The notes under the pieces: generated by a model | Told to the model about the DNA's origin: nothing | The model's database searches: none | Seen by the model: only the letters and a program-made list of their open reading frames with translations | Origin: Trueperaceae bacterium | GTDB taxonomy: Bacteria; Deinococcota; Deinococci; Deinococcales; Trueperaceae | Assembly (NCBI GenBank): GCA_040905465.1 | Contig: JBBDRK010000073.1 | Location: 1 to 17,613, forward strand | Direction of reading: 5' to 3' | DNA length: 17,613 bases | Translations under genes and position numbers: made by a program | Part shown: piece after piece, positions 106-17,549 of the stretch | How positions within the stretch are numbered: the stretch's first letter is position 1 | Layout of the letters: every line of letters begins with the position of its first letter

Positions 106-1311
106 TCAGGGTGCTTCTGTCCCGCTCTTCTTTCTGTCTTCCGGCCAGCGGCCGGGGCTTCTGTCTTGGTTGCGCCAGTAGTCTTTGCTCGGGTCGATGG
201 TGTGGCGGCTGAGGATCTCGCCGGTTTCCTGGTGGATGACGGTGGCGGTGGTGTGGTCCACGAGGATGGTGACGCGTTCCCGCGTGTGCTTCCTTCCGAC
301 GCCGAGGTGGTGGAGCTTGCCGGCGTGGCGGAGGGTGAGGAGTCCGAGCTTGTCGACTCGGTCGTTGCGGATGCGGAAGTGGGTGGCGTCGGCCTGGCTG
401 GCTGGCGCTGCTTTGGGGGTGGCGCGGTAGGCGTCACCCGGGGTGGCATTGCCCGCTAGGGCGCGGTGCGGCCTGTGCTCATTGTAGTGCGCCCTGAAGG
501 TGTCGAGTTGGGCTTGGAGCTCCACTAGGGTCTCCGGGGTACTGAGGGATTTCAGGCGTTTTTTGAGTGTCTGATGGAAGCGTTCGACTTTCCCTTGCGT
601 GCCGGGATGGCCGGGATGTCCGTTCTTCTGTCGTACGCCTAGCTGAGCTAGGAGGTGCTCGAAGGCGTTCTTGCCTCCTACGAACCTGCTGGTGTATACC
701 CCGGCGTTGTCGGTGAGGGTGGAGGCTGGCGTGGCGTGCTCGTCGATGCAGGCGGTGAATGTGTTGATCACGTCGCTTCCGCCGACGCGCCTGTAGGCCT
801 TGCTGCACAGCAGGAAGCGGCTGTGGTCGTCGAGCCAGTTGATGATCTCGACTGTGCTGCTGTCGGCCAGTTGCCAGTGCGTGAAGTCGGATTGCCAGCA
901 CTCGTTGGGTTGCGCCGCCTGGAAGCGGATGAAGCTGCTCTTGGGGCGTTTCTGCGGTTGGGCTTTGACCAGGCCGGCGGTGCAAAGCACCCGCCTGATC
1001 GTCGAGGTGCTGGGCGGCTTGACCCCCTCTCGCTCCAGATGCCAGGCGAGGGTCACCGGCCCGGCGTCGAGTCCCTGGTTGGTCAGCTCGCACCGTAGTT
1101 CGATGATCCGGAGGCGAAGCGACTCGGTGGTCGCTCGGGCGTTCGACTTCGGTCGCCGCGAGCGCTCCTCGAGACCATCGATGCCCTGTTCACGGAAGAG
1201 TTTGAGGAGACGTTGAACGTGCTGCCTGGAGTACCCGTAACGCTTGCCTGCGGCGCTGACGGTCATGGCTCCAGAGAGCACTTGCTGAACAACAACCCGA
1301 CGCTTGGACAT
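106..1311 (-). CDS. IS481-family DDE transposase
   Basis: N-terminal HTH (TVSAAGKRYGYSRQHVQRLL...LEERSRRP); rve integrase core WQSDFT / TLTDNA / QGKVERFHQTLK; YNEHRPHRAL. Confidence 0.95.
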   Translation of the reverse strand: MSKRRVVVQQVLSGAMTVSAAGKRYGYSRQHVQRLLKLFREQGIDGLEERSRRPKSNARATTESLRLRIIELRCELTNQGLDAGPVTLAWHLEREGVKPPSTSTIRRVLCTAGLVKAQPQKRPKSSFIRFQAAQPNECWQSDFTHWQLADSSTVEIINWLDDHSRFLLCSKAYRRVGGSDVINTFTACIDEHATPASTLTDNAGVYTSRFVGGKNAFEHLLAQLGVRQKNGHPGHPGTQGKVERFHQTLKKRLKSLSTPETLVELQAQLDTFRAHYNEHRPHRALAGNATPGDAYRATPKAAPASQADATHFRIRNDRVDKLGLLTLRHAGKLHHLGVGRKHTRERVTILVDHTTATVIHQETGEILSRHTIDPSKDYWRNQDRSPGRWPEDRKKSGTEAP

Positions 1312-1320
1312 GAATGAGAC

Positions 1321-1383
1321 TGTCGCTCATGTCTCGACTCATGTGCCACCTATCAGCTGTCGCATATGTCTTGAAACCAGACA
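1321..1383 (-). repeat. Terminal IR plus internal repeat upstream of the transposase
   Basis: Reverse complement of 1321-1342 is ATGAGTCGAGACATGAGCGACA, versus ATGAGTCGGGACATAGGCGACA at 60-81. Confidence 0.75.
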
Positions 1384-1398
1384 CAGACGGGCCCGCCA
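1384..1398 (+). repeat. 15-bp target-site duplication, right copy
   Basis: CAGACGGGCCCGCCA immediately after the terminal ACA. Confidence 0.93.
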
Positions 1399-1505
1399 AA
1401 AAACACGCAAGGGCGCCAGCCCGCGCAAAGGCTCAGCGGCTTTGCTGTGGTACAGCTAAGTTGCGGCGTATGTTTCGACCGCACTTGACTTGGGAGTGAT
1501 TGAAG

Positions 1506-1997
1506 ATGTCGCGGCAGTCGATTGCCAATGTGCACCTGGTTGATGTCAGTGAGGCGAACATGGCGAGCGGTGGCGGAGTTGCGGGTAGATCCGCTGCAGG
1601 AGCGTTTTAGCAGGTCTGCGTTGTTCTCTATTGCCGAGGCGCAGTTCTATCCGGCCGTGCGACTGAAGGCCGTACTCGGTGCGGAAGGTCGGCCAGTGGG
1701 CTTGGTGATGTACGGGATAGATGACGAGGATTGGGGATACCGGATTTTCCGCCTGCTGATCGCCTCTGGGGAGCAGCGGAAGGGCTACGGACGAGCTGTT
1801 GTCCAAATGGTCATCAACGAGCTGGCCCCGCTGCCGGACTGCCAGGAAGTATGGTTACGGTACTACCGGACAACGAAGCGGCTGAAAAACTCTACTCCGG
1901 CCTTGGGTTCGTTGAGCTGAGGAAAGAGCGCGGTCAGGTGTTGGCGAGGCTCATAGTGGCCAGGGATCGCCACTCGGTTCACGGAGACGTTCCATGA
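1506..1997 (+). pseudogene. GNAT N-acetyltransferase (spermidine/diamine acetyltransferase-like), two frameshifts
   Basis: MSRQSIANVHLVDVSEAN | extra A at ~1560 | WRAVAELRV...QRKGYGRA...VWLRYY | missing base at ~1866 | PDNEAAEKLYSGLGF. Acetyl-CoA motif QxxGxG and motif B NxxAxxLYxxLGF lie in different frames. Confidence 0.82.
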
Positions 1998-2199
1998 TGA
2001 TGGCCAGACCGATATGTACGAGGCGTTGCGGGCCTACTCAGAGGTCGGGTTCAACGGTCCGATGAGGCCTGACCACGCGCCGGTCATGGACGGCGAGGCG
2101 AATACCGACCCCATGTATATGCACCTCGGACGATTATTTGCGATCGGCTATATCAAGGGGATGCTCGAGGGGGTCGATCATTTGGAGCGAACCGCGTAG
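1963..2199 (+). pseudogene. uxuA: C-terminal remnant of mannonate dehydratase
   Basis: Frame reads GIATRFTETFHDDGQTDMYEALRAY..GFNGPMRPDHAP...GRLFAIGYIKG, the UxuA C-terminal signature; upstream in-frame TAG at 1954 and no N-terminal part. Confidence 0.85.
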
Positions 2200-2337
2200 T
2201 GGCTGCCGCCCGCGGCAAGATCTTCATTGTTCTCCCGATCAGCCGCCTAGCCATGTCGGTGTGGGAAGCCACCGCTAAGATCGCGGCAAACTATCCGATA
2301 CCACCGCGTAGTCGCATCGGTAGTGATAGGAGGCACC

Positions 2338-3264
2338 TTGGCTGTGCACCGCTTTGTTCCGTCCAGCTTCTGTAACACCTTCGGGCCGCACGAAACCGTA
2401 CTGTCTATCGTCAGTGGTGACGTCGTGCAAACGAGCACCGTCGATGCGGCAGGTCGCGATAGCCGCGACGAACTAGTCGCAGAACGCGGCAATCCCCTGA
2501 CGGGACCCTTCTTCGTTCGGGACGCCGAACCCGGCGACACGCTCATCGTGCACATCCGGGCCGTCCGTCCAAATCGCATACGTGGCTTCTCGAGTGCTGC
2601 CCTTGCGCCGGTAGCCGTTGACTCCGACTACGTATGGGAGCTGGAGCGTACGTCCCGGCGCATCGATTGGCACATCGACATCGACTCCGGGACCGTGCGC
2701 CAAGCGAGGCCCGTAAAAGGTAATGAACACCTGGTTTTGCCGCTTGCTCCAATGCTCGGCTGCATTGGGGTCGCGCCCGAGCGAAGGCAAGCGATCACCA
2801 GTGCCACGTCCGGAAGGCACGGCGGAAACATGGACTATCGGCGTATTGGAGCCGGCATGACGATGATGTTCCCCGTCCTCACGAACGGCGCCCTGCTATA
2901 CATCGGCGACGCCCATGCGGCCCAAGGCGCCGGGGAGTTGACCGGCACCGGGATCGAGGTATCGGCCAACGTCGAATTGCAGATAGAGTTGGAGCGGTCC
3001 GTTCCGCCCGAAGCACGAGTCCTGTGGCCCCGGGGCGAGACCGCCGATGCCATCTTCACCATCGGCAATGCACGCCCACTTGAGCAAGCGTTGCAGCACG
3101 CCACCACGGAGATGACGCGGTGGCTCCGCAGCACTTACGGTCTTTCGATCGAAGCGGCGTCCATCCTCATCGGCCAAGCCTGCGACTATGACCTAGGCAA
3201 CATGTTCGACCCGGCGTATACGATGGTTAGCGTGATGGAAAAACGGTTTCTGCCCCGTCCCTGA
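2338..3264 (+). CDS. Acetamidase/formamidase family protein
   Basis: GNPLTGPFFV..AEPGDTL, PMLGCIGVAP, HGGNMD, GDAHAAQGAGE motifs; AGGAGG at 2328-2333 (start TTG 2338 or GTG 2344). Confidence 0.9.
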   Translation: MAVHRFVPSSFCNTFGPHETVLSIVSGDVVQTSTVDAAGRDSRDELVAERGNPLTGPFFVRDAEPGDTLIVHIRAVRPNRIRGFSSAALAPVAVDSDYVWELERTSRRIDWHIDIDSGTVRQARPVKGNEHLVLPLAPMLGCIGVAPERRQAITSATSGRHGGNMDYRRIGAGMTMMFPVLTNGALLYIGDAHAAQGAGELTGTGIEVSANVELQIELERSVPPEARVLWPRGETADAIFTIGNARPLEQALQHATTEMTRWLRSTYGLSIEAASILIGQACDYDLGNMFDPAYTMVSVMEKRFLPRP

Positions 3265-3441: not shown

Positions 3442-4254
3442 CTAGACACCGCCGAACGCCGAATAGCCACCGTCGACCGGGATGACGACTCCGGTCACGA
3501 ACCGAGCGGCCTCACTGCACAGCCACACCAGGCAGCCCACCAGCTCCTCGGGATCGCCGAAGCGCCCCATGGGCGTGTGGTCGACTATCAGTCGGCCCCG
3601 CTCGGTGAGGCTGCCGTCTTCGTTGAGAAGCAGGCTGCGGTTCTGCTCGCCCACGAAGAATCCGGGAGCGATGGCGTTTACCCTCACGCCGGCTCCATGC
3701 TCGCGCGCGATGTGAACGGCAAGCCAGCGGGTGAGGTTGTCGATACCCGCCTTGGCAGCCGAGTAACCTACCACCCTGGTCAGGGGTTTCTGTGCCGCCA
3801 TCGAGGAGATGTTGACGATCGACCCGGTGCCCTGCTTTGCCATCGTCCTGCCGAACACGAGCGCCGGCAGCAGCGAGCCCAGTAGGTTCAGGTCGACCAC
3901 TTCGCGTACCGCCTGGGCGTCCAGGTCGAAGAGGGAGGCGTCGGGGGTCACCGTCGCGTCGGACCTGTTTCCCCCGGCGGCGTTCACCAGCACGTCGACT
4001 CGTCCCCAGGACCCCAGCAACTCCTCGTGGATCCGCTCGAGCGCGGACTGGTCCAGCACGTCTGCCGGCAACGCCATCGCCTCGCCCCCCGCGGCGCTGA
4101 TGCCCTCGCTAACCGCCCTCGCCGTCTCGCCGCGGCGGCCGACCACTGCTACGCGGGCGCCGGCGGCTGCCAGGCCCCGTGACATCACGCTGCCCAGTAC
4201 TCCGGTTCCACCGGTTACCACGGCGACCTTGCCGTTGAGGCTGAACTGGCTCAT
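3442..4254 (-). CDS. uxuB: SDR oxidoreductase, D-mannonate oxidoreductase/fructuronate reductase-like (Bacillus-type UxuB)
   Basis: TGGTGVLG, NAAGGN, NISSM..PLTRVVGYSAAK, APGFFVGEQNRSLL..DGSLTERG..I..HTPMGRFG, DGGYSAFGGV, characteristic of the mannonate-reductase SDR clade. Confidence 0.8.
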   Translation of the reverse strand: MSQFSLNGKVAVVTGGTGVLGSVMSRGLAAAGARVAVVGRRGETARAVSEGISAAGGEAMALPADVLDQSALERIHEELLGSWGRVDVLVNAAGGNRSDATVTPDASLFDLDAQAVREVVDLNLLGSLLPALVFGRTMAKQGTGSIVNISSMAAQKPLTRVVGYSAAKAGIDNLTRWLAVHIAREHGAGVRVNAIAPGFFVGEQNRSLLLNEDGSLTERGRLIVDHTPMGRFGDPEELVGCLVWLCSEAARFVTGVVIPVDGGYSAFGGV

Positions 4255-5375
4255 GATCCTCCCGCCATCTTATCCACCACGACCTCACCGTCGGCGACGA
4301 CCGCCAGCAGCTCTACGCGCCGGCCTGCGGTGTCGATGAGCGTCCAGTCCTCCCGTGGCTCCAGCCCCAACAACTCCGCGGGCGTTCGGCTCACCATCCG
4401 CAAGGCAGAACCAGCATCGATTCCCAGGCGATTGAGCGCGGTATCGACACCGTCGAGCAGCGAGCTGGCAGAGCCGGCGAGGTACTCGGTTCCGAAGATC
4501 CGCAGCCTGCCGTCCTTGCCGAGCTCGACCTTGCCTCCCACCTGACCCTCGTATACGCCCGGCTCACAGCGGGCCAGCGAGACCGCGTCGCTCGTGAGAA
4601 CCAGCTTTTGGACGCCCTTCACGCGGAAGAGTACCCGCATGACACTCGGGGGTAGATGATGACCGTCGAAGATGGCGCTGGCCGTGAGCTCGTCTCGGGC
4701 CAGTTGCTCCCAGATCGGGTTGGGGTGGCGCGGAAGCTGCGCCGGGATGCCGTTGCCCAAGTGGGTGGAGAGCCTGGCTCCGGCAGCGACTGCCCGCTCG
4801 ATTTCGTCGCCATTGGCGACGGAGTGGCCGATGGCCACGACCACACCGTGGGCGGTGAGCTGACCTATCAGCTCCGCGGCCCTCCTCATCTCCGGTGCCA
4901 GAGTGAGCAGTCGGACCTGTCCGTTCGCGGCTTCCTGAAACTCATCGAACAGTGCCCGGTCGGGGTCGCGAATGTGCTCCTCGGGATGAGCGCCACGAGC
5001 GCCACGGTCGCGGGAGATGAATGGGCCCTCGAGGTGGATCCCCGGGACCGCCCGGGTCACGACCGGAGACTCCTGCCGCGCCCGTACGATGATTCGCAGG
5101 CACTTCTTCATGTGCACGAGGGAGTCGGTTACTACGGTGGGCAGGAATCGGGTCACACCTTCGGCCTGCAGGCGCCGCACTACCTCCTCGAAGCCGTCCG
5201 TGGTCAGCTCCCCCGAGTTGAAGTCGAATCCGGCAAAACCGTTCACCTGAACGTCGAACCAGCCGGGGCTCAGGTACACGGTGGATTCCTGTCCGCTCAC
5301 GGCTCGTCGCAGCAGCCGCCCCTGGCTGATGCTCACCTCGCTCAACTGGCCGCTCTCAACGTCGTGGGCAATCAC
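4251..5375 (-). CDS. nagA: N-acetylglucosamine-6-phosphate deacetylase-like amidohydrolase
   Basis: PGWFDVQVNG, HLEGPF, RGAHP, TLAPE, GHS, THLGNG, DGHH, TSDA, LAGS; AAGGAGG RBS at 5381-5387 (- strand); 4-bp overlap with the SDR start. Confidence 0.88.
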   Translation of the reverse strand: MIAHDVESGQLSEVSISQGRLLRRAVSGQESTVYLSPGWFDVQVNGFAGFDFNSGELTTDGFEEVVRRLQAEGVTRFLPTVVTDSLVHMKKCLRIIVRARQESPVVTRAVPGIHLEGPFISRDRGARGAHPEEHIRDPDRALFDEFQEAANGQVRLLTLAPEMRRAAELIGQLTAHGVVVAIGHSVANGDEIERAVAAGARLSTHLGNGIPAQLPRHPNPIWEQLARDELTASAIFDGHHLPPSVMRVLFRVKGVQKLVLTSDAVSLARCEPGVYEGQVGGKVELGKDGRLRIFGTEYLAGSASSLLDGVDTALNRLGIDAGSALRMVSRTPAELLGLEPREDWTLIDTAGRRVELLAVVADGEVVVDKMAGGS

Positions 5376-5432
5376 GTTGACCTCCTTATCGCCTATTGCC
5401 TATTGGCGAGCCGCTTCGCCTGCGCCTTTCGA

Positions 5433-5461
5433 TTGCGCCGCCCAGTGTCGCATGCTAGGTT
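5433..5461 (+). promoter_or_regulatory. Sigma70-type promoter for the ROK operon
   Basis: TTGCGC (5433-5438), 17-bp spacer, TAGGTT (5456-5461) with extended TG at 5453-5454. Confidence 0.55.
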
Positions 5462-5484
5462 ACTATCTAAACGAGAGAAAGTAA
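5460..5484. promoter_or_regulatory. Candidate ROK-repressor operator
   Basis: TTACTaTCT-N7-AGAaAGTAA, an AT-rich 25-bp imperfect palindrome in a GC-rich background, 2 bp before the ROK ATG. Confidence 0.65.
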
Positions 5485-5486
5485 TT

Positions 5487-6674
5487 ATGAGCCAGAGCCT
5501 GAATGCCATCCACGGTCGCGCAGTGGGCCGCAACGGCCTCCTGCGGGACCTCAACCACCGCGCCGTCTACGAACAGCTGGCGAACGAGGGGCCCGCCTCC
5601 CGTGCCGACCTGGCTCGCCGGCTCGAGCTGTCGGCTGCATCGGTAGGCAGAGTAGTGGAGGGCCTGATAAGAGCCGGTTTGGTCGAGGAGGGCGAGCGAG
5701 TCGCCGGCGGCGTAGGCAGGCCGCAGACCCTTCTCCACGTCAACGCCAGGGCGGGTCTCGTTGCCGGGATGAGTATCCGCTCTAAATCTATGCGGCTGCA
5801 CCTCAGCGATCTCGCCGGTACGATCGTCGCCAGAGCCCAGGTCGAGCGTACCGACGCCGGGATAGACGCATTGGCCGGCCAGATGCGAGATCTCGTCCTG
5901 CAAACGCGTGCAGCCCACGCGCCCGAACTGAAGCTGGCGTCGCTGGTTGTGGGTATCTCCGGCGTGTGGGACGAGTCCGACCGACAGGTCTACGCGGCAC
6001 CGAACCTCTCCATCCTGGAGGGCGTCGACGCCAGGACACTCTTTCACGCGGCGCTCTCCGAGCACATACGGCCCGAATCGGTTCAGGTCGACAACGACAT
6101 AAACCTTGCCGCTCTGGGCGAATGGGAGCACGGCGCGGCCACGGGGGTCGACAACTTCTTCTACCTGAGCCTCGGTTCCGGCATCGGCGGCGCCGCCGTT
6201 ATCTCCGGCTCCCTCTACCGCGGCCTGAGGGGCTTCGCCGGGGAGCTGGGTTATCTGCCCGTCCATGTTGGGGGCAGGTTGCGATCGCTCGAGCAGGTAA
6301 TCGGCCGCAGGGCGCTTGAAGAGTTCGCAGCCCACGCCGGCCTGCCAGTCCCCGGTGGCGAAGTCTTCGGCTACCTGGCCAATCAAGCTTCGGACCACGA
6401 CGATATAGCCGACTATGTGACGGAAGCGCTGGGGCAAGCGCTGGTTGCCGTCGTCGTCACCCTCAACCCGCGCCTGATCGTCCTGGGAGGTGGCGTCGGA
6501 CGTTACGGCTCCGTTTGGATCGAACGGATCAGGGAACGGCTCAACGGGTTCGTGCCCATCGTCCCCAGCATCGTAAGCACCGAGCTCGGCCGCGAAGCCT
6601 CGCTGATGGGTGCGGTCGGCCTCGGGCGGAACATAGCGCGCAGCACGTTGCTCGCCCTGGAGCTGGCGGCGTGA
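5487..6674 (+). CDS. ROK-family transcriptional repressor (NagC/XylR-like)
   Basis: N-terminal wHTH (LRDLNHRAV..GPASRADLARRLELSAASV..GRP), DNDINLAALGE, GSGIGGA, GFAGELGY. True start is ATG 5487; the ORF-track extension to 4656 is a shadow of nagA. Confidence 0.92.
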   Translation: MSQSLNAIHGRAVGRNGLLRDLNHRAVYEQLANEGPASRADLARRLELSAASVGRVVEGLIRAGLVEEGERVAGGVGRPQTLLHVNARAGLVAGMSIRSKSMRLHLSDLAGTIVARAQVERTDAGIDALAGQMRDLVLQTRAAHAPELKLASLVVGISGVWDESDRQVYAAPNLSILEGVDARTLFHAALSEHIRPESVQVDNDINLAALGEWEHGAATGVDNFFYLSLGSGIGGAAVISGSLYRGLRGFAGELGYLPVHVGGRLRSLEQVIGRRALEEFAAHAGLPVPGGEVFGYLANQASDHDDIADYVTEALGQALVAVVVTLNPRLIVLGGGVGRYGSVWIERIRERLNGFVPIVPSIVSTELGREASLMGAVGLGRNIARSTLLALELAA

Positions 6675-6735
6675 CCGGTCGTCGCTCACTGGAGCGAGGC
6701 GCCGCCTCCAGCCGGGAAATCGAAGGGGGGTGCGC

Positions 6736-7530
6736 ATGAGCCCTTCCGGTCCGGAAGTGCGGAAATACGATCGACTGCGAGTCGAAATCCACGCGAGCAG
6801 CGAGTCGTTGGCACAGGCGGCCGCTACTCGGGCCGCGAGCCTTCTGGCCGATGCGATCGAATCGCGCGGAACGGCGAGGGTGGTACTGGCGACGGGCAAT
6901 TCGCAACTCGAATTCTTCCGGACGCTCAGGCAGCTCGACAGTGGCGACTGGAGCGTGGACTGGAGCAAGGTCGAGGCCTTCCACATGGACGAATACCTGG
7001 GAATTGGCGAGGCGCACGTTGCCAGCTTCCGCCGCTTCCTGCGACGAGAGGTTGTCGAGCCGCTTGGACTGGGGGAGTTCCACGGTATCGAAGGCGATCC
7101 CGAGAGCGCCGAGGAGACCATCGAGCGCTATTCGGCACTGCTCTCCGCCAAGTCCGTCGACCTCTGCTGCATGGGAATCGGCGAGAACGGGCATCTCGCC
7201 TTCAACGACCCGCCCGGCGTCGACTTCGACGATCCCCAACTGCTCAGAGTGGTGGCTCTGGATGAGGTGAGCCGCCAGCAGCAAGTGGGAGAGGGTCACT
7301 TTCCCGAAATTTCAGCAGTACCGACCCACGCCATCACCCTCACCATCCCGGCACTGCTGAGTGCCCGGCACATCATCGTGATTGCGCCCGAGGACAGAAA
7401 GGCCGAGGCCGTCCACAAAGCTCTGGAAGGGGCGATCGATCCCTCCTGCCCGGCTTCGATCCTCCGCACCGCCGGGCACGCCAACCTCTACCTCGACGTT
7501 GCCTCGGCGCGCCTGCTGGAGCGCAGATGA
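6736..7530 (+). CDS. nagB: Glucosamine-6-phosphate deaminase-like protein
   Basis: VLATGNSQ, FHMDEY, GIGENGHLAFNDP, AITLTIP, KAEAV, CPASIL. Confidence 0.88.
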   Translation: MSPSGPEVRKYDRLRVEIHASSESLAQAAATRAASLLADAIESRGTARVVLATGNSQLEFFRTLRQLDSGDWSVDWSKVEAFHMDEYLGIGEAHVASFRRFLRREVVEPLGLGEFHGIEGDPESAEETIERYSALLSAKSVDLCCMGIGENGHLAFNDPPGVDFDDPQLLRVVALDEVSRQQQVGEGHFPEISAVPTHAITLTIPALLSARHIIVIAPEDRKAEAVHKALEGAIDPSCPASILRTAGHANLYLDVASARLLERR

Positions 7531-7570
7531 TCCACGTCGATTGCAATCACAAGCCGCCCGGAGTGGAAGC

Positions 7571-7601
7571 GGGGTGGTCGGCATGAACGGTTGATCGCCC
7601 C
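7571..7601 (+). other. RNA hairpin in the dctP leader
   Basis: GGGGTGGTCGGC-atgaacg-GTTGATCGCCCC, a 12-bp stem with four G:U pairs. Confidence 0.5.
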
Positions 7602-7645
7602 CTTCGCCTCTCGCCCCCCAAAGCCGACTCTAGTTGGAGGTAGAC

Positions 7646-8635
7646 ATGAACCGATTCAGAATCGCACTCGTCACGCTGTTCGGACTAGCAGCGCTCGCGC
7701 TCACGTTCGCTCAGGCGCAGGCCACGCTCAAACTCGGGCACATCCGGGACACCGCCCACCCTACCCACCTTGGCGCGCTCCACTTCGCCGAACTTGTCGA
7801 GGAGTCCACCGAGGGGCGGGTCGAGGTCGAGGTGTTTCCGGACAGCCAGTTGGGCGGCATCCAGGAGATGTTCGTGCAGCTGCAAACCGGTGACCTGGAA
7901 ATGGTCTACGGCGGGATCAACACGCTGGCGTTCATCGGTGGTGGAGAGGCTTTCGACATCACCGCCATCCCCTTCCTCTACCGTGACTACGAGCACATGC
8001 GAGAGGCGCTTCTCGCGGACTTCTTCGCGCCAATAATCGAAGAGGCCGAGGAGAATACCGGCATACACATCATCAACATCGCCGGCGACACCGCGCCGCG
8101 CGGACTCTCTGCCGACCGCGCCATTCACGGCCCCGAGGACTTCCAGCGGCTCCGCATCAGGACGGCCGCCAGCGAGGTCGTACTCCGCGCGATGCAGCGC
8201 CTGGGCGCACTTCCGCAACAAGTGCCCTTCTCCGACCTCTACGTTGCGCTCAGGACCGGCGTGGTCGACGCTCAGGAAAACGGCGCAATCACCGTGGTCA
8301 ACGCCAGCCTCTACGAGGTCCAGCCGTACTATATGAAGACCGACTACATCCGCGACATCGAGACCTTCTACGTCAACCCCCGAGTTTGGGAGAGCCTGTC
8401 GGAAGCCGACCGCGAGGCCATCCACCAGGCGACCGAGGAGGCAGGTGAACTGGTCACCCAGCTCACCGAGGAGCAGCTCACCGAGGCCTACGAGGTTCTC
8501 GAGCAGGAGATCACCGTGATCCGGCCCCCGGAACTCGACCTGGAGGCGATTCGCGAGGAGCTGGAAGGCACCTTCTCCGACTGGGACGGCACCAAATGGC
8601 CGGCGGGCACACTGGAGAAGATAAGAGGCCTGTAG
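7646..8635 (+). CDS. dctP: TRAP transporter substrate-binding protein
   Basis: Signal peptide; VEVFPDSQLG, LRIRT (conserved carboxylate-binding Arg), LYVALRTGVVDAQEN, LYEVQ; GGAGG RBS. Confidence 0.93.
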   Translation: MNRFRIALVTLFGLAALALTFAQAQATLKLGHIRDTAHPTHLGALHFAELVEESTEGRVEVEVFPDSQLGGIQEMFVQLQTGDLEMVYGGINTLAFIGGGEAFDITAIPFLYRDYEHMREALLADFFAPIIEEAEENTGIHIINIAGDTAPRGLSADRAIHGPEDFQRLRIRTAASEVVLRAMQRLGALPQQVPFSDLYVALRTGVVDAQENGAITVVNASLYEVQPYYMKTDYIRDIETFYVNPRVWESLSEADREAIHQATEEAGELVTQLTEEQLTEAYEVLEQEITVIRPPELDLEAIREELEGTFSDWDGTKWPAGTLEKIRGL

Positions 8636-8646
8636 TCCACCCCCAA

Positions 8647-8676
8647 GGCTGGGGAGCATGATCGCGCTCCCCAGCC
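8647..8676 (+). terminator. Intercistronic hairpin after dctP
   Basis: GGCTGGGGAGC-atgatcgc-GCTCCCCAGCC, perfect 11-bp stem. Confidence 0.65.
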
Positions 8677-8706
8677 AGTCATTGCCCCTTCGGAGGACGC
8701 TCCCCG

Positions 8707-9984
8707 TTGATACTGGTCCTGTTTGGCCTCCTGTTCGCGTTGATCGCCGTCGGCTTCAGCATCTGGACGGCGATGGGCGTGAGCGGCGCCATTTATATCG
8801 TGATGCAAGGCGAGGTGTCTTTCCGCCTGGTGGCATCTCGGATGGTGAGCGGGATCGACTCGGAAACCCTGGTTGCGATCCCCTTCTTCATCCTGGCCGG
8901 CGACATCATGAACGCCGCCGGCATCACCCGCCGACTGGCCGACTTCGCGGACCTGTTCGTCGGTCGCTTCCGGGCGGGACTGGCCTACGTCTCCATCATC
9001 GTGAGCGTGATCATGGCCGGAGTGTCCGGCTCGGCGGTGGCAGACGCAACTTCGGTGTCCTCGGTACTGCACCCGATAATGCGCAAGCGCGGATATCACG
9101 ACCGCTTCGCGGCTGCCATCAACGCCAGCTCGGCGGTAATCGGACCTATCTTCCCTCCAAGTATTCCCATGATCTTCATCGGGGTGATAAGCGGCCTCTC
9201 CATCGGACGCCTCTTCCTCGGTGGCATATTGCCCGGACTGCTCATGGCCGGAATCCTGTGGTTCGTCGCGACCCTGGTCAGCAATCGCCGCGGGTACGCC
9301 AAAGCGCCTGTCGGCTTCTCCTGGCGGCGTTTCGGTAGGCTCGCCAAGGAGACGCTGCTGGCGTTGCTCGCCCCAAGCTTCGTCATCTCCGGCGTGGTGT
9401 TCGGCTTTGTGACGATTACCGAGGTGGCGGCAATCGCCGTGGCCTACGTCATGTTCCTGGGCCTGTTCGTCTACCGGACGCTCACATGGTCGCAGCTGGC
9501 CGAGGTGTTCCGCCGCAGCGCCCTGCTTTCGGCGACGCTCATGGCGATCTTCGCGGTTGTGGGGCTGTTCCAGTACATCGTCGCCACCGAGCAGATGGGC
9601 GCCCAGCTCGAGTCGATGGTGGAGGCGCTGAACCTCGGCAAGAACGGCTTCCTGGTGTTCACGACCATCTTCTTCCTGCTGTTGGGGGCCATCCTGGACG
9701 CCATCCCCGTGATGCTGATCTTCTTCCCCGTACTGCTGCCGATCGCCATGGAACTGGGAATCGATCCCACCCACTTCGGGGTGATCACGGTCCTCAACCT
9801 GATGATCGGTTTGCTCACGCCACCGATCGGCGTGCTCCTTTTCATTCAGACAAAGATCGGTGACGTGGGGTTCGGGGAGCTGTTGGGTGAGATCTGGCCT
9901 TATATCCTCGCCCTCCTGGGCGTGCTGCTGCTGTGCACGTTCGTCCCCGCAGTGGTGCTGTGGATCCCCAACCTGGTGTTCTGA
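8707..9984 (+). CDS. dctM: TRAP transporter large permease
   Basis: LVAIPFFILAG, GVSGSAVAD, PPSIPMI, SIGRLFLGG, GIDPTHFG, IGLLTPPIG; GGAGGA RBS with TTG start. Confidence 0.95.
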   Translation: MILVLFGLLFALIAVGFSIWTAMGVSGAIYIVMQGEVSFRLVASRMVSGIDSETLVAIPFFILAGDIMNAAGITRRLADFADLFVGRFRAGLAYVSIIVSVIMAGVSGSAVADATSVSSVLHPIMRKRGYHDRFAAAINASSAVIGPIFPPSIPMIFIGVISGLSIGRLFLGGILPGLLMAGILWFVATLVSNRRGYAKAPVGFSWRRFGRLAKETLLALLAPSFVISGVVFGFVTITEVAAIAVAYVMFLGLFVYRTLTWSQLAEVFRRSALLSATLMAIFAVVGLFQYIVATEQMGAQLESMVEALNLGKNGFLVFTTIFFLLLGAILDAIPVMLIFFPVLLPIAMELGIDPTHFGVITVLNLMIGLLTPPIGVLLFIQTKIGDVGFGELLGEIWPYILALLGVLLLCTFVPAVVLWIPNLVF

Positions 9985-10469
9985 TGGGAGTTGCTGTGAC
10001 TAGAACGATCGACTACCTCACGGCGCTGCTCGAATGGGTCATGACCCTGTCGTTCGTCGCCCTGTTCCTGGTCAATCTGCTCAACATCGTCCTGCGCAAC
10101 ATCGCGGGAATCGCCTGGCTGTGGATCCCCGGCTTCTCGCGACTGGTCTTCATCTGGCTGGTATTCCTGGGAATCGCCGCAGCCTACCGGCGCGCAGCGC
10201 ACCTCGACATCGACTTCTTCCTCCTGAGGATGAAGCCTCGAGTTCGGCTGCTGACACTCATGGGGATCAACCTGGTCCTGATTCCGTTCTTCGTCATCCT
10301 GCTCGTATATGGGCTGGACGTCGCCCAGGTACGCATGCGCGTACCGTTCGACACCTGGCAGGTACCGACGGGCTACGCCTACCTCGCCGTCCCGGTTTGC
10401 GCCGTGCTGCTGCTGCTGTACTGCGGGGAGCGGCTCGTGAAATTAGTGAAGGAGGCAAGAAGCCCATGA
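9984..10469 (+). CDS. dctQ: TRAP transporter small permease
   Basis: 4 hydrophobic helices; NIVLRN, SRLVFIWLVFLG, HLDIDF, YLAVPV; TGATG coupling to the dctM stop. Confidence 0.9.
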   Translation: MGVAVTRTIDYLTALLEWVMTLSFVALFLVNLLNIVLRNIAGIAWLWIPGFSRLVFIWLVFLGIAAAYRRAAHLDIDFFLLRMKPRVRLLTLMGINLVLIPFFVILLVYGLDVAQVRMRVPFDTWQVPTGYAYLAVPVCAVLLLLYCGERLVKLVKEARSP

Positions 10470-11230
10470 ACAAGGAGCATCTGCAACAGTACCGGGTTGC
10501 GGTCGCGAACGCCTTTGCCGAGATCGAGAGCCAGGAGCCGGCGTTCGAAGCGGCTGCCAAGGTGCTGGCTCGCGCCATTGCCGGTGATCAGGTGGTTCAC
10601 GTGATCGGCCCGGGCGGCCACTCCAACATGGCGGCCGAGGAGGTGCTGTGGCGGGCCGGCGGACTGGCTCCCATCAACGCCATCCTCGACCCCGGCACCA
10701 ACCTGATCCACGGCGCGAAGCGCTCCAACTACATCGAGAGGACGCCGGGTTACGCCAGCAGGGTGCTCGATGCCTACCGGGTCGGCCTCACCCCCGGCGA
10801 AGTGATCATCATCGTCAACGCCTACGGCATAAACTCGATGGTGATCGACACGGCCCTGGAGGCGAAGAAGCGGGGAATGACGTCGGTGGGCATCACCTCC
10901 AGGGGTTTCGCCGACAACCTAGAGCACGACCACCCCTCTCGTCACCCGTCGGCCAAGAACCTCTATCAGGAGGTAGACCACTTCCTCGATTGCCACGTCC
11001 CCTACGGAGACGCCGCCGTCGTGATCGCCGGCTCGAAACAGAAAACCGGACCCACCGCGACGATGTGCAACCTCTATACGCTCAACCTGCTGATGGTCGA
11101 AACCGTCTACCAACTGGTGGAGCTGGGGGTCGAGCCGCCGATCTGGATGAGCGCCAACCTGCCCGGCGGCGACGAGGCGAACAGGGCCAACGAGGAAAAG
11201 TACATCCCCAGGGTCCGGCATCTGGGATAG
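10466..11230 (+). CDS. SIS (sugar isomerase) domain protein
   Basis: GPGGHSNMAAEE..RAGGL, ERTPGYA, SRHPSAKNL, VPYGDA, PPIWMSANLPGGDEAN; AAGGAGG RBS; ATGA overlap with dctQ. Confidence 0.88.
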   Translation: MNKEHLQQYRVAVANAFAEIESQEPAFEAAAKVLARAIAGDQVVHVIGPGGHSNMAAEEVLWRAGGLAPINAILDPGTNLIHGAKRSNYIERTPGYASRVLDAYRVGLTPGEVIIIVNAYGINSMVIDTALEAKKRGMTSVGITSRGFADNLEHDHPSRHPSAKNLYQEVDHFLDCHVPYGDAAVVIAGSKQKTGPTATMCNLYTLNLLMVETVYQLVELGVEPPIWMSANLPGGDEANRANEEKYIPRVRHLG

Positions 11231-12036: not shown

Positions 12037-12155
12037 GTATCTCCTGACTGGTAACGAATAGTCACGGTGTGGCGGACCTGCTTACCTTAGTCAACGGGAA
12101 CATGAGAGCCCGCAACCTCTCATGAGAAGAGTGTCGGCCGAAGGAGGAGGTATTC

Positions 12156-13076
12156 GTGAAGTATCGCAAGCTCGGAGCTACCGGCCTGGAGGTTTCCGTC
12201 GTCGGCATTGGCACCTGGCAGTTCGGGGGCGAGTGGGGCAAGAGCTTCTCGCAACAGGAGGCCGACCGGATCCTCGGTCGGGCGGGCGAACTCGGCATCA
12301 ACCTGATCGACACCGCCGAGTGTTATGGCGATCATCTTTCCGAACGCCTCGTCGGCAAGGCCATCGCAGGCCGCAGGGAGTAGTGGATTGTGGCTACGAA
12401 GTTCGGTCACCGCTTCCATGGCCAGTTCGAGCGCAGCCAGCAGTGGTCGGCGTCCGAGGTGGCCGAGCAGCTGGAGGCGTCTCTTGCTGCCCTCCAGACC
12501 GATTACGTCGACCTGTACCAGTTCCATTCGGGCAGCGACGAAGCGTTCGACAACGACGAGTTGTGGCGGATGCTGGCCGAACAGGTCGACAGCGGCAGGA
12601 TTCGCCGCCTGGGGATCTCCATCGGCAAGAATCGGAACATCCACCAGACCTCTCGCGCCAGCCGGGTTGGGGCCGGCGCAATCCAAGTGGTCTATAACCG
12701 GCTCGATCGCGCCCCCGAGGAGGAGGTGTTCGGCGCCTGTCGGGAGCAGGATCTCGGCGTGCTGGCCCGGGTACCGCTGGCCAGCGGTTACCTGAGCGGC
12801 AAGTACCGTCCCGGCGACAGCTTCAGCGACGAGTCCGACACCCGCTCGCGTCACGATCCCGACGAGGTGCAACGGAAGTTGCAAGAGGTCGAGCAGATAC
12901 GTCGCGATGAGATGCCCGAGAACGTGCCGATGGCCGCCTGGGACCTGGCCTGGTGCCTGAGACACCCGGCCGTGACCTGCGTGATCCCCGGTTGCAAGAG
13001 CGTGGAGCAGGTGGAGTCGAACGCGTTGGCGGCCGAGCTTGCCCCCGCCGAGCACCCGCAGGCGGTTGCCGGGTGA
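12156..13076 (+). pseudogene. Aldo/keto reductase interrupted by an in-frame TAG at 12381-12383
   Basis: MKYRKLGATGLEVS..IDTAECYG..RRE*WIVATKFG..TDYVDLYQFH..PLASG..VIPG; both halves share one frame; strong GGAGGAGG RBS. Confidence 0.85.
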
Positions 13077-14623: not shown

Positions 14624-15109
14624 TCAGGGACCCGGTTCCAGCAGGTCGGTGTCCGGTTTACCCGGATGGGGATTCCCGAGCACGCGGGCCAGCGCCAGTG
14701 CCTGCCCCTTGTGGTGGAACTCGTGGGTGATCGGATGCAGGATCAGCCAACGCTGGGTGAGCGTCGACCGGCTGCCACTGGGAGAGGTCCAGTCGAAAGG
14801 GTTGTCCGGAGCGTTGAAGGCGTCGAGCGCCTTGGCCACCGTCGAATCTACCTCGTCGAACGCCGTCCGCAACTCGGCGACCGATTTCGCGTGGATCTCC
14901 GGGTCGGGACCGCCGAGTCCGACCGAGCCGACCCACCACAGGTAGGTGTCGGCGACATGCGAGTAGATCGCGCTCAGGCTGCCGAAGGCGAAGTCCGGAT
15001 GCTTACGGTTCAAGACCTCTTCCGGCAGGGTGTCGAGCCAGTCGAGTACGCCCGCCCGGGTGCGCCGGGCAAGGGAGTAGAAGACTTCGAGATCGCGATT
15101 GACGCTCAT
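14624..15109 (-). CDS. DinB family protein
   Basis: GSL..IYSHVADTYLWW and HPITHEFHHKGQ metal-binding His pattern. Confidence 0.88.
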   Translation of the reverse strand: MSVNRDLEVFYSLARRTRAGVLDWLDTLPEEVLNRKHPDFAFGSLSAIYSHVADTYLWWVGSVGLGGPDPEIHAKSVAELRTAFDEVDSTVAKALDAFNAPDNPFDWTSPSGSRSTLTQRWLILHPITHEFHHKGQALALARVLGNPHPGKPDTDLLEPGP

Positions 15110-15125
15110 GGACGAATACCACCTA

Positions 15126-15671
15126 TCACGGAAACACGTACGGATTGAAGGAGCCGTCGCTGCCGGGCAGGAGGCGCTTCCGAATCAGAATTACCTGGCC
15201 GGTGTGGCGCGACTCGTCCATCATCAGGTGCGTCCAGTAGTAGTGAATGTTGCTTGCCCTCCCGGCGAAAGTCCTGGGAGTGGCCAGCCAGGCGTCATCC
15301 TTTTCGGCGAGCAGCGACAGCGTATCCTCGTGGGTCCGCTTCAGGTAATCGCGGTAGGCCGCCATGTCCTGCCCGGCCAGATGGTTGCCGTCGAATCGGA
15401 ACGCCCGTTCGAGGTCCTCCTGGCCAGCCGCGAACCGCAGATCGTGGAACATGAGGTTGCGGATCATTACCTCGGCCGCCGCAACGTGAGCCAGAATCGC
15501 GCCGATCGAGTTACTGCAACCGGGCGCCAGGGTGTCCAACTGGGGCGCTCCCAGTTCGCGTGCCGCGCTGAGCAGGTAGTAGCGGTGGCTGCCCAGCTGG
15601 CTGGCGAGCGTCTCCAGGAGCGGCCTCGTGCCGAAGTGGGGACCGACGGATAACGGGTGTTGGAGGCTCAC
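15126..15671 (-). CDS. DinB/DUF664-like protein
   Basis: NSIGAILAHVAAAE and WTHLMMDESRHTGQV; start probably GTG 15671, since the ORF-track extension overlaps the divergent gene. Confidence 0.8.
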   Translation of the reverse strand: MSLQHPLSVGPHFGTRPLLETLASQLGSHRYYLLSAARELGAPQLDTLAPGCSNSIGAILAHVAAAEVMIRNLMFHDLRFAAGQEDLERAFRFDGNHLAGQDMAAYRDYLKRTHEDTLSLLAEKDDAWLATPRTFAGRASNIHYYWTHLMMDESRHTGQVILIRKRLLPGSDGSFNPYVFP

Positions 15672-15719
15672 GGTCGCCTGGACACGAATCGCGCACGAGT
15701 TCCTGGCGGCGTCATTGTC

Positions 15720-17549
15720 ATGTTCATGCACCACAATAAACCGGCCGCACGATTGCGGCGCGCGACTATACTCGGACACGGGCAGGCGTCACGATTCCAC
15801 GACCCGGCGAGGGAGCTGGTGGATCAGAACAGGTACTTCCTGGAGGCGGCTCGAGCCGCCTGGCAGCGGTTGTCGGCCGAGGAGCGGGCAGAAGCGGAGG
15901 CCGGCCTGGACGCGGCGGTGGACGGCCTGCTCGGCACGGACGAGCTTGCGCCTGTCGTGCTCCGGCGCCTCCTGGTCCGCGCACCGGACATGCGAGCGCG
16001 GCTGGCCAGCTGCCGGCCCGCCGAGCGGAGCCGCCTCGATGAGCTGATCGAACGGCTGATGGGCGCCTTGCGTGGCGACGGCGCCAAGGCGGACGCCGCC
16101 GCGGGCGGGCATGCGGCCGCCCTCTACGCCCAGCACCTGCTCGCCCAGGCGCTACCGCTGTCCCTCGATGTCGACTCCGGCCGGCAGTTGCTGCGGCTGC
16201 TCGAGCGCGTCGCCCGCCACCAGGAACTGGCCCCAGTCGCTCGCCGGCGGGCCGGCGAGCAGCTGGCCGACGAGCTGGTGCGCGCCGCGGGTGCGGAACT
16301 GATCGACAAGGCTCGAGAGATCCTGGGCGAGCAGAGCCGGATCCCGGCGGCCGCCGAGTGGACTCTGCTGCCCGCGCGCCTGCTGCTGAGCGTAGACCGG
16401 ACCAGCATCAGTTGTGCCCGCTACCTGGCGGGGCTGCAGAAGGTCGAGCGCGACAGCTACGGCTTCGACGAGTTGCGCTCGGGTCCAGCCGGCCGTGCCA
16501 AGCGCGTCGACCAGGTGACGGTCAAGTTCGATCGACCCGACGGTCTGTCGGCACCGCCGGGTCTTGGCCGGGAGGCCGCCGGGGAAGCCGCCCTCGCGGT
16601 GCCGGGCAGCGAACTCAAGGCCAAGTCTTTCGTCGCGCTCCTTTCGCTGGCTGCCGCGGCGGCCGCCGACGGCCGGAGCGACGGCCGTCAGAGCGTGCGC
16701 CTGCGCGACCTGCTGGCGATGCTCGGCTTCTCACTCGGACGCGGCACCAACAGCGGCTACTACTGGCGTTACTACGCCGAGCTCGTGCGCTGTCTGCTGT
16801 TCGATCTGCCGAACCGGGTGGTCGCCATGCAGGTTAGCTTCGCCGGCGCCGCCGAGCCGCTGGTGGTGTTCGAGCGCCTGTTGGTCCGCGCGCTGCCGCT
16901 GGACGACCAGGGTGTGCCTCTCGCCGCTGGCCCGCTCCGATCCCTGTTGCTCGCGCTGAACGGCGAGCCGGAGGACATGGCGGCCGCCGTTCGAGAGGCC
17001 GGCGTCTTCGGGGTAGAGTTCGCTTTCAGCCCCGAGCTTCTCGCCGCGCTGGGCCTGACCAAGCCGATGAACGCACTAGAACACGTCCCGTTCGAGCTGC
17101 TGTCGCTCAAAGGACCGGCGTTCTAGCTCGCCTGGCAGGTCTCTTTCCTGCGCCGCTGGGCCAGGCCACCGCTTGGCGCCGCCCACGGAAAGCCGCTGCT
17201 GCGCGTGCTCGACGAAGCCGGTTACCTTGCCCGCCATACTCGCGGAAACAAGGTTCGTTATCGGGACGCCGTGGGTGCGTGGTGGCGAGACGTCGGCTCG
17301 CTGGTGGCCATTGGCCTGCTCGACGAGCCCGGCGTTCGCCTTTACGCCTTGCGAGGTAACGTCTGGCGCGACCTTTCCACGGCCGTGAGCCGCTCGCTCG
17401 ATCCCGGCGGTCGCCGCCTCGGCAGGCAGTTGCTGCAGCAGATCAGGGTCATATTCTCAGTCCCCGCCGAGCGGGTGAGCCAGCTCGAGGGCGTCCGCAG
17501 GCGCGGAAGCAAGCTGCGAGCAGCGGCTGCGGCAAGACGGCCCGGCTGA
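15720..17549 (+). pseudogene. Large hypothetical protein (~600 aa) with in-frame TAG at 17124-17126; possibly DNA-binding/replication-initiator-like
   Basis: ORFs 15657-17126 and 17205-17549 share a frame and read through as LKGPAF*LAWQVSFLRRW...LLRVLDEAGYL; GC-rich third codon positions; start uncertain (15720 or GTG 15819). Confidence 0.6.

Follow-up and report, generated by a model that had tools for sequence, protein, structure and literature searches.

The stretch analysed here (the window; 17,613 bp, the entire contig C73; genome completeness 95%, contamination 1.7%) carries a group of amino-sugar and sugar-acid genes, and named relatives of its NagB-like protein are labelled Trueperaceae. 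An earlier note on this DNA, which had overlooked that the window spans a complete contig, had proposed for these genes a kinase-free catabolic route for an N-acetylhexosaminuronate. The region is described here as a composite catabolic island with a widespread core, in which the genes of a TRAP (tripartite ATP-independent periplasmic) transporter (DctP-DctM-DctQ) and of a SIS_2/UPF0309 protein are accompanied by NagA and usually by a NagB-fold deaminase. The best explanation (rough probability 0.55) was that of a conserved TRAP-SIS-NagA-(NagB-fold) unit, devoid of a kinase, that would serve an acidic N-acetylhexosamine (HexNAc) derivative. Observed directly were the gene content and translational couplings, the module's conservation, the lack of a kinase and the loss of a phosphate loop from the SIS protein.

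The window genes were called from the listing of open reading frames (ORFs) together with Pfam and NCBIfam scans. On the forward strand, the core is made up of a ROK-family regulator (5487..6674), a NagB-like deaminase/isomerase (6730..7530, with an alternative start at 6736; PF01182), the TRAP solute-binding protein DctP (7634..8635, probable start at 7646; PF03480, E 1e-63), the large permease DctM (8707..9984; PF06808, E 4e-112), the small permease DctQ (9933..10469, likely true start near 9984; PF04290, E 4e-24) and the NagS/MurQ-related SIS_2/UPF0309 protein (10466..11230; PF13580, NF002805). A NagA-like amidohydrolase (putative deacetylase; 4251..5375) and a short-chain dehydrogenase/reductase (SDR) of the UxuB type (fructuronate reductase/D-mannonate oxidoreductase; 3442..4254) lie on the reverse strand. 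The order dctP-M-Q and the divergence of the nagA-SDR pair from ROK-nagB-dctP-dctM-dctQ-SIS, both given in the earlier note, were confirmed in the sequence, as was the translational coupling of nagA to the SDR gene, whose stop and start share the letters ATGA, with GGAGGA immediately upstream; the dctQ-SIS junction is a second ATGA overlap. As the earlier note had also stated, no kinase or phosphotransferase-system family was found among the scanned window ORFs (Pfam), and neither PfkB nor BadF/BcrAD kinases, searched for across the genome, matched on the window contig.

The solved relatives of the SIS protein were 3cvj (E 2.5e-32) and NagS/SCO4393 (9eol; E 4.4e-26, 95 bits). According to the NagS study (PMC12680351), His53, Arg64, Glu94 and Asp179 are essential, mutation of Asn228 strongly reduced the activity, and the phosphate is held by Ser54, Ser119 and Ser121. 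The same text relates NagS, by the authors' tree, to MurQ, both enzymes acting at C2-C3 of N-acetylhexosamine 6-phosphates, and one of its section headings states that N-acetylglucosamine 6-phosphate (GlcNAc-6-P) as well as N-acetylmannosamine 6-phosphate (ManNAc-6-P) is accepted by NagS. It further reports that true NagS orthologs share at least 58.7% identity and that homologs about 26-36% identical, found beyond the Streptomycetaceae, failed to dehydrate GlcNAc-6-P. In the alignment to 9eol, the residues corresponding to His53, Arg64, Glu94, Asp179 and Asn228 were all retained in the window SIS protein; Ser54 was also kept, and Ser119, Ser121 and Ser91 were replaced by Asn, Tyr and Asn, respectively. 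The phosphate loop SxSG thereby reads NAYG in the window protein, and VNAYGIN was found in all five aligned orthologs. The SIS paralog of the same genome, which lies beside a BadF kinase on contig C49 and is fused to a ceramidase-like domain, reads SNSGRN. With the MurQ model TIGR00274, the genome search gave a match on C49 (265 bits) and two weak places, none of them on the window contig.

For a view of the loop that did not depend on the motif, the whole SIS protein was searched in 364 Deinococcota genomes, which gave 29 loci with 1.5-kb flanks (1 unparsed). A BadF kinase was adjacent in 0/16 loci of the NAYG[IV]N type and in 4/12 loci of the S[NH]SGxN type (16 and 12 of the 29 loci, respectively), a contrast that is suggestive rather than a statistical test and that overstates the support, the genomes being related to one another. 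The neighbours of the NAYG[IV]N loci were TRAP genes, ABC permeases with NagB and an epimerase of the AGE family, ROK, or NagA. That the SIS protein has lost its phosphate loop argues for an unphosphorylated sugar as the substrate of at least the first enzymatic step.

DctP orthologs (76-82% identity) were found in 4 of 363 other Deinococcota genomes and were absent from both same-genus genomes. All 4 Trueperaceae DctP loci carry nagA and/or ROK-nagB together with dctPMQ-SIS in the same order; the SDR was not found in the 3 of these loci whose flanks were readable, and an oxidoreductase of the GFO/IDH/MocA family lies right after SIS in 2 of the Trueperaceae module loci and near the module in 3 loci. 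Metagenome contigs were scanned with the alignment of the five SIS orthologs, and the best 80 of 350 relatives (65-80% identity, 33-72% GC), many of them on short contigs, were retained. Among these 80 loci, matches were recorded for DctQ in 69, DctM in 63, DctP in 48, NagA in 31, window-type NagB in 10, an FmdA-like protein in 4, ROK in 3 and the SDR in 1 (32% identity), and for the UxuA fragment in none. Taken together with the 4 Trueperaceae loci and a further one (L002), 85 related loci were available, and a tblastn search with the genome's own BadF-type kinases matched 0 of the 85, which bears out the claim of a kinase-free cluster. A ROK kinase query matched only the window, L105 and L131, and PfkB matches among the 85 loci were limited to three KdgK-like genes and one unrelated gene in L097. 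UxuA was found in 0/85 and UxaC in 1/85 of the module loci.

The surroundings of the core were resolved further by de novo ORF clustering on the 63 metagenome loci with no more than 56% GC. The core order in these low-GC loci was GntR/FCD regulator, DctP, DctM, DctQ and SIS, with NagA on either side, and SIS was followed either by a 328-aa protein (21/63 loci) or by an alcohol dehydrogenase of the medium-chain dehydrogenase/reductase (MDR) type (12-13 loci). The 328-aa family (L156:9183-10169 and 20 further loci) always lies directly after a SIS gene of the NAYGIN type and has no Pfam or NCBIfam match; hhalign aligned it to the NagB clade over 253 columns (probability 98.7%, E 3e-16), by which it is placed as a divergent NagB fold. 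Its conserved motifs are WLMAAPSGF, FQFDDYP and GIGMDGHWGFHG, and Ile stands in it in place of the invariant Arg182 of the window NagB. The MDR dehydrogenase, which resembles sugar or aldonate dehydrogenases, was mostly followed by a D-2-hydroxyacid dehydrogenase (8-9 loci), for which models of phosphoglycerate dehydrogenase (PGDH), glyoxylate reductase and GhrB outscored those of D-lactate dehydrogenase. LarA homologs, closest to malate and lactate racemases and not of the hexonate epimerase type, lie near the module in 8 loci, and KdgK-like and Eda genes in 3 loci, two of which are near-duplicates. Three loci (L118, L120, L125) carry NagA, SIS, dehydrogenases and KdgK/Eda and have no NagB-fold gene within 10 kb. 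As a separate observation, a fused large-plus-medium subunit of diol/glycerol dehydratase (L118:13753-16071; also in L110, L112 and L120) lies about 3 kb downstream of the SIS-alcohol dehydrogenase-2-hydroxyacid dehydrogenase genes. An ABC variant of the module, CUT1-type ABC-SIS(NAYGIN)-NagB-AGE-family epimerase, was read within 1.5 kb in L214, L216, L219, L220 and L225; L002 is also of this variant, with no NagA on its 9.7-kb contig and an aldo-keto reductase on the other strand. No deacetylase was found in the readable stretch of the ABC-variant loci.

The class of the imported ligand was estimated from DctP, whose LRIRT arginine aligns with Arg-147 of SiaP (LKLRV). According to PMC4646407, an arginine of this type selects carboxylates, and sulfonate or phosphate is rarely bound there; the ligand of DctP is thus probably a carboxylate, as the earlier note had stated for TRAP binding proteins in general. 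The best solved relatives were 4n8g (E 1e-35), 4pc9 (E 3e-33) and SiaP proteins (about 1e-32), and since none of them is close, the ligand itself cannot be read from homology.

The window NagA scored below the equivalog cut-off of TIGR00221 (191.6 vs 225.65 bits; the module NagA of L156 reached 203.3). Its motifs DVQVNG, HLEGP, GHS, THLGN and SDA, which hold the metal-binding and catalytic positions of amidohydrolases (QxN or HxH, Glu, two His, Asp), align with solved NagAs and are invariant in the clade alignment; at the position of the Arg in the HHREPG motif of 2vhl, the clade has Arg in 10/12 and Lys in 2/12 sequences, a retention that fits any C6 anion. This NagA clade accompanies the TRAP-SIS unit, and orthologs 55-57% identical adjoin the TRAP unit elsewhere. 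The window NagB passed the Pfam gathering score (94.2 vs 27 bits, PF01182) and fell below every NCBIfam cut-off (NF001684, the best, 143.3 vs 326; TIGR00502, 110.2 vs 236.9). FHMDEY, GENGHLAFNDP, R182 and K224, which hold the catalytic Asp, His and Glu and the anion-binding Arg and Lys, align with 2bkv and are invariant in the alignment of the NagB clade, which is divergent, has a QQVGEGHF insert and is very large (at least 599 matching stretches in GTDB genomes); the window copy is the only PF01182-type homolog in its genome (tblastn). No TRAP genes were found in the best 80 loci of the window-NagB clade (0/80), a set that is informative only for the NagB-SDR-UxaC link. Amuc_1822 is a proven deaminase of glucosamine 6-phosphate (GlcN-6-P); its published forward primer did not match the NagB of a metagenome-assembled genome labelled Akkermansia (L017), so that the clade is not anchored to the assayed enzyme. 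The stretch concerned, L017:3463-4278 on a contig labelled Akkermansia muciniphila, gave 0 primer matches with up to 3 mismatches, and either the label or the assignment to a species may be loose.

Under the best explanation, the TRAP system would import a carboxylate-bearing N-acetyl-hexosamine derivative, and the SIS protein would carry out NagS/MurQ-type C2-C3 chemistry (proton abstraction, followed by elimination, hydration or epimerisation) on this sugar without a 6-phosphate. NagA would then deacetylate and the NagB-fold enzyme deaminate, and lineage-specific oxidoreductases would channel the product into sugar-acid or central metabolism. In the source genome, the module appears to have been fused to the ancestral nagA | ROK-nagB unit of the family, with a UxuB-type fructuronate reductase placed directly behind nagA, and the nearby uxuA would be a dead leftover of rearrangement involving the insertion sequence and the GNAT gene. 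In its more specific form, in which SIS of the NagS/MurQ type, NagA and NagB-fold paralogs all act on an unphosphorylated, TRAP-delivered carboxylated HexNAc (an N-acetylhexosaminuronate or N-acetylmuramic acid, MurNAc), the carboxylate replaces the phosphate handle and the 328-aa family is a dedicated deaminase, the pathway falls a little short of an even chance.

Among substrates compatible with the best explanation, an N-acetylhexosaminuronate, namely N-acetylmannosaminuronate (ManNAcA), N-acetylglucosaminuronate (GlcNAcA) or N-acetylgalactosaminuronate (GalNAcA), with SIS as a 2-epimerase-like step, ranks first but is by itself somewhat unlikely; a 3-O-(carboxyalkyl)-HexNAc of the MurNAc type seems less likely, and a uronosyl-1,3-HexNAc disaccharide quite improbable. 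A role of SIS as a 2-epimerase from ManNAcA to GlcNAcA is conceivable by analogy, because NagS is reported to accept both GlcNAc-6-P and ManNAc-6-P. Three other substrates were considered. Sialic acid was rejected as the main substrate, since no NanA-type lyase was found in the Pfam scan of the window (the related loci were not searched for NanA) and NanE is encoded elsewhere; the aldonic acid of N-acetylglucosamine (GlcNAc1A) was rejected by inference, as it offers no carbonyl to a NagB-fold isomerase; and the sulfated substrate GlcNAc-6-sulfate found no support, a sulfatase being present in 0/85 module loci.

Several observations weigh against the best explanation. The transported ligand and every catalytic step were deduced from homology and gene context. 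The 80 metagenome loci were pre-selected for the altered SIS loop, which was one of two search patterns. The accessory enzymes vary by lineage, and more than one substrate may be involved; the ABC variant shows that the SIS/NagB pair can occur apart from carboxylate import and from a deacetylase. The window NagB is typical of its large clade, most of which has no link to acid-sugar genes, and shows no special change. Residues that bind phosphate in solved homologs are retained by NagA and the window-type NagB, and the genome has two BadF-type kinases outside the window; owing to the conserved phosphate-binding residues, NagA and NagB could still act on 6-phosphates supplied by such an external kinase. 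In favour of the earlier note's proposal that a C6 carboxylate replaces the 6-phosphate, NagA and NagB keep the basic residues that bind the C6 anion in solved homologs.

A second amino-sugar cluster was found in the same genome, with NagA2, a PF01380 SIS protein, NanE, a BadF kinase, the MurQ-like protein (265 bits) and AnmK nearby. The stretch G000:C49:34000-50000 (L093) contains an ABC importer, a DegT-type aminotransferase, a 706-aa fusion, the BadF-type kinase, a second ceramidase-like protein and NanE; the 706-aa fusion consists of a ceramidase-like N-terminal domain and a SIS_2 domain with the phosphate loop kept. As this cluster contains a kinase, the window set is not the housekeeping pathway, which argues for a specialised second amino-sugar system. 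The cluster also bears on one sub-case of the best explanation, by which the TRAP system takes in MurNAc or a related 3-O-carboxyalkyl HexNAc, SIS acts on the unphosphorylated sugar as an etherase/eliminase and frees D-lactate together with a product of the GlcNAc type, and this product is processed by NagA and NagB directly or after phosphorylation by a kinase encoded elsewhere. Such a course would suit the SIS protein, whose kin NagS and MurQ act at C2-C3 and which has kept the catalytic residues and lost the phosphate loop, and MurNAc bears the carboxylate that the TRAP binding protein needs. The 8 LarA homologs near the module (closest to malate/lactate racemases), the D-2-hydroxyacid dehydrogenases in 8-9 loci and the frequency of the module in metagenome contigs across a wide GC range are also consistent with it. 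The genome, however, already has AnmK, the MurQ-like protein and the BadF kinase in its canonical cluster; the 2-hydroxyacid dehydrogenase favours the PGDH, glyoxylate reductase and GhrB models, and the MDR enzyme resembles sugar or aldonate dehydrogenases. Moreover, the SDR, GFO, KdgK/Eda and UxaC neighbours and the deacetylase-less ABC-SIS-NagB-AGE variant would be left unexplained, and a neutral GlcNAc product would not account for the anion-binding Arg/Lys of NagA. A MurNAc-type pathway is therefore regarded as decidedly unlikely.

The SDR scored above the cut-off of the NF006132 'D-mannonate oxidoreductase' subfamily (381.4 vs 281 bits), its family occurs in 92/128 genomes of the Trueperaceae, and orthologs with 55-71% identity lie within UxaC/UxaE/GntE operons (L025, L016, L063, G287, G252). 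Because of these operons, the window SDR is credibly a fructuronate reductase, and the reading of it as a fructuronate-reducing UxuB type, made in the earlier note, is upheld. In the best 29 SDR loci of the family (one of which, L196, comes from an unpublished genome, G324), a LarA of the GntE type was adjacent in 18/29 and NagA in 0/29; this LarA has 4nar as its best solved match and 'putative hexonate epimerase' as its best NCBIfam model. In L016 and L063, both from Chloroflexota, orthologs of UxaC and UxaE (tblastn) are followed by the SDR, the LarA ortholog and a Gnd-/GntK-like ORF (by N-terminal reading only). GntE turns D-mannonate into D-gluconate, according to Desguin et al., and the SDR-LarA pair looks like a Thermotoga-style bypass of UxuA from mannonate to gluconate. 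A conserved pair of a UxuB-type SDR and, behind it, a GntE-type LarA occurs in L177-L205 (Trueperaceae), L016:16734-19082 and L063:11060-13219.

Within the source genome, a second UxuB-type SDR lies beside KdgK and Eda on C43, and the GntE-type LarA lies beside Gnd on C58 (12451-15567) without an SDR. UxaC gave no match in the 95%-complete genome, and with two UxuB-type SDRs and no UxaC, another source of fructuronate would make sense. A substitute for UxuA of the ManD type was looked for: the C43 enolase-superfamily gene beside the SDR paralog reached 137 vs 550 for ManD, its best model being talarate/galactarate dehydratase (259 vs 500).

These data were used to weigh the exact route of the earlier note, from GlcNAcA or ManNAcA by NagA to glucosaminuronate, by NagB to D-fructuronate and NH3, by the SDR to D-mannonate and then to 2-keto-3-deoxygluconate (KDG), which is a further sub-case of the best explanation. 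For this route speak the ATGA coupling of nagA and the SDR, the NagB-SDR overlap in L025, the NagA-NagB-SDR run in the Chloroflexota locus L048 and the row SDR-UxaC-amidohydrolase (NagA)-NagB in the same-genus genome G287. The lack of a kinase in 85 loci, the retained anion-binding basic residues of NagA and NagB and the SIS changes from Ser to Asn and Tyr, whose hydrogen-bonding side chains are longer and could extend as far as a carboxylate placed nearer, would also suit it. So would the two UxuB-type SDRs and the GntE-type LarA beside Gnd in a genome with no UxaC, where a fructuronate source other than UxaC fits, and the sugar-acid-type dehydrogenases, KdgK/Eda and the one UxaC beside the module elsewhere; no competing published pathway was found. 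On the other side, conserved uxuA/uxuB linkage, which had been set beforehand as a test, failed for the TRAP-SIS-NagA unit: UxuA was found in 0/85 loci, and the SDR in 1/80 metagenome loci at 32% identity and in 0/3 readable Trueperaceae loci. The window uxuA is a dead fragment of 70 residues, with no other UxuA match in the genome and with 137 vs 550 as the best enolase-superfamily score against ManD. In the best family SDR loci it is the GntE-type LarA (18/29) and not NagA (0/29) that is adjacent, L118, L120 and L125 have no NagB-fold gene within 10 kb, and the route leaves no role for SIS, the most constant partner of the transporter. UxaC shares operons with nagA/nagB and the SDR in G287, L025, L016 and L063. 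The exact route is therefore judged unlikely. The broader proposal of a kinase-free N-acetylhexosaminuronate route held with regard to the absence of a kinase, the Arg/Lys retention and the type of the SDR, and did not hold with regard to uxuA/uxuB linkage and the part of SIS. The claim that UxaC is unneeded was likewise supported by the genome without a UxaC match, and not by the relatives with nagA/nagB-hexuronate clusters, in which UxaC is not dispensable.

The relatives carry further combinations of these genes. In G252, the nagA | ROK-nagB unit (61-63% identity) lies beside a KduI-UxaE-SDR-GntE operon with an ABC importer; in the Deinococcota locus L025, NagB and the SDR overlap by 4 nt and are followed by LacI, UxaE and UxaC; and sulfatases flank nagA/nagB in 7/80 NagB-anchored loci. 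This mixture suggests that uronate and amino-sugar portions of acidic glycans are consumed together, an ordinary explanation by which the joining of amino-sugar and hexuronate genes, to which the earlier note had pointed, would call for no new chemistry.

The left border of the window has been rearranged, as marked by an IS481-type transposase (106..1311, reverse strand; Pfam rve_3, rve and HTH_28; present once in the genome). This gene and the GNAT acetyltransferase ORF (1522..1920, forward strand; Acetyltransf_1, E 7e-8) directly 5' of the uxuA remnant had been overlooked by the earlier note. The non-functional C-terminal remnant of the mannonate dehydratase UxuA (1972..2178, forward strand; PF03786 positions 282-351, E 8.9e-14) lies 1.26 kb from the SDR stop, in agreement with the remnant that the note had reported nearby. 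It covers about 70 of 352 profile positions inside an open frame of 80 aa, well short of the full-length domain, and no second UxuA match was obtained in the 95%-complete genome (PF03786 search; the full-length UxuA of L055 matches here only). The GNAT ORF and the uxuA fragment share one frame with one stop between them and adjoin the transposase (window 1312-2322), an arrangement that looks like replacement of the 5' four-fifths of uxuA, i.e. 5' truncation by rearrangement.

Such traces bear on a conventional reading of the locus, in which NagA and NagB act on ordinary GlcNAc-6-P and GlcN-6-P with the kinase encoded elsewhere, and the SDR, the uxuA fragment and TRAP-SIS were juxtaposed by rearrangement without forming a single pathway; amino-sugar and hexuronate genes would then stand together because acidic amino-glycans of the glycosaminoglycan type serve the family as food. 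The nagA/nagB-hexuronate arrangements of G252, G287 and L025 and the sulfatases in 7/80 NagB loci are what it would lead one to expect, and the IS481 transposase, GNAT insertion and truncated uxuA are signs of recent rearrangement. The absence of the TRAP unit from both same-genus genomes, the two BadF-type kinases elsewhere and the conserved phosphate-binding residues of NagA and NagB also agree with it. What it leaves unexplained is the recurrence of TRAP-SIS with NagA/NagB-fold genes and never with a kinase over 85 GC-diverse loci, and also why it is precisely the kinase-less type whose SIS protein has lost the phosphate loop; the ATGA junction of nagA and the SDR, moreover, points to an established operon and not to a fresh accident. 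This conventional reading is held to be somewhat unlikely, and the conserved kinase-less unit is retained as the best explanation.

The remaining features of the window were described as follows. An acetamidase/formamidase-family (FmdA_AmdA) protein (2323..3264, forward strand; PF03069, E 3e-23), also overlooked by the earlier note, lies between the uxuA remnant and the SDR gene and is a possible accessory amidase; members of its family were found near the module in L088 and L089 and within ABC-type operons in L136, L142, L146 and L167. The divergent promoter/operator region (5376..5486) contains an AT-rich imperfect palindrome immediately upstream of the ROK start; two loose patterns scanned against the genome for it matched at 9 and 27 scattered places, respectively, and revealed no regulon. 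The ROK protein (Pfam ROK and a MarR/TrmB-type helix-turn-helix) has weak NagC/Mlc matches and an N-terminal winged helix-turn-helix, and lacks the ATP-binding DxGxT (GMSIRSKS stands at the first site) and the Cys-rich zinc motif (no Cys cluster) of ROK kinases; by its sequence it is a transcriptional regulator rather than a kinase. To the right of SIS, a SurA_N gene, an amino-acid permease and ORFs without a family match are unrelated to the cluster. The ORFs at 12120-13076 and 14624-17126, several of them long, have no Pfam family; they include 15657-17126 (489 aa) and the opposite-strand pair 12120-13055/12390-13076, and some of them may not be genes in this GC-rich DNA.

The cell envelopes of bacteria and archaea are rich in N-acetylhexosaminuronic acids and muramic acid. 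No publication describing this module or pathway was found in the literature search, nor was a catabolic route for N-acetylhexosaminuronic acids found described, and the pathway is plausibly a new one. If no phosphate handle is needed by the enzymes, a whole phosphosugar pathway would have been re-tooled for a carboxylate handle; if this is true, a function would also be given to the UPF0309 homologs that were inactive on GlcNAc-6-P in the NagS study, and a new NagB-fold family would be defined. Should the conventional reading prove right, amino-sugar and hexuronate genes form an ordinary mosaic at this locus. The module, found on contigs of 33-72% GC, would offer a testable entry point of four soluble proteins and one binding protein.

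When compared with known systems, the island shares with the canonical GlcNAc/sialic-acid route (NagK/NanK, NanE, NagA and NagB; SiaPQM) the Arg of the TRAP binding protein, enzymes of the NagA and NagB types and a ROK regulator. Unlike that route, it has no kinase, NanA lyase or NanE, its NagA and NagB fall below all NCBIfam equivalog cut-offs, and it contains a UPF0309 SIS enzyme for which the canonical route has no need. With NagS (Streptomycetaceae, 9eol, PMC12680351) and MurQ, the window SIS protein shares the SIS_2/UPF0309 fold, the catalytic residues and the linkage to NagA/NagB. It differs from NagS in adjoining dctQ and the SurA_N gene instead of dmdR1, within an operon with a TRAP transporter, and, unlike the NagS orthologs with at least 58.7% identity, it reaches only 95 bits to 9eol and has Ser119, Ser121 and Ser91 replaced.

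The Thermotoga-type hexuronate pathway (UxaC, UxaE, SDR-type UxuB and LarA-type GntE, or UxuA to KDG) has the UxuB SDR subfamily in common with the window; here, in contrast, the SDR gene stands behind nagA and not ahead of GntE, the genome gave no UxaC match, and only a piece of UxuA is present. The oxidative chitin pathway of Pseudoalteromonas for GlcNAc1A is also kinase-late and leads from an N-acetylated amino-sugar acid to KDG, reportedly by a D-aminoacylase-type deacetylase and a D-amino-acid-type deaminase. Unlike the deaminase of that route, a NagB-fold isomerase-deaminase would be unable to act on an aldonic acid, which is without a C1 carbonyl, and this difference would set the window pathway apart from the GlcNAc1A route.

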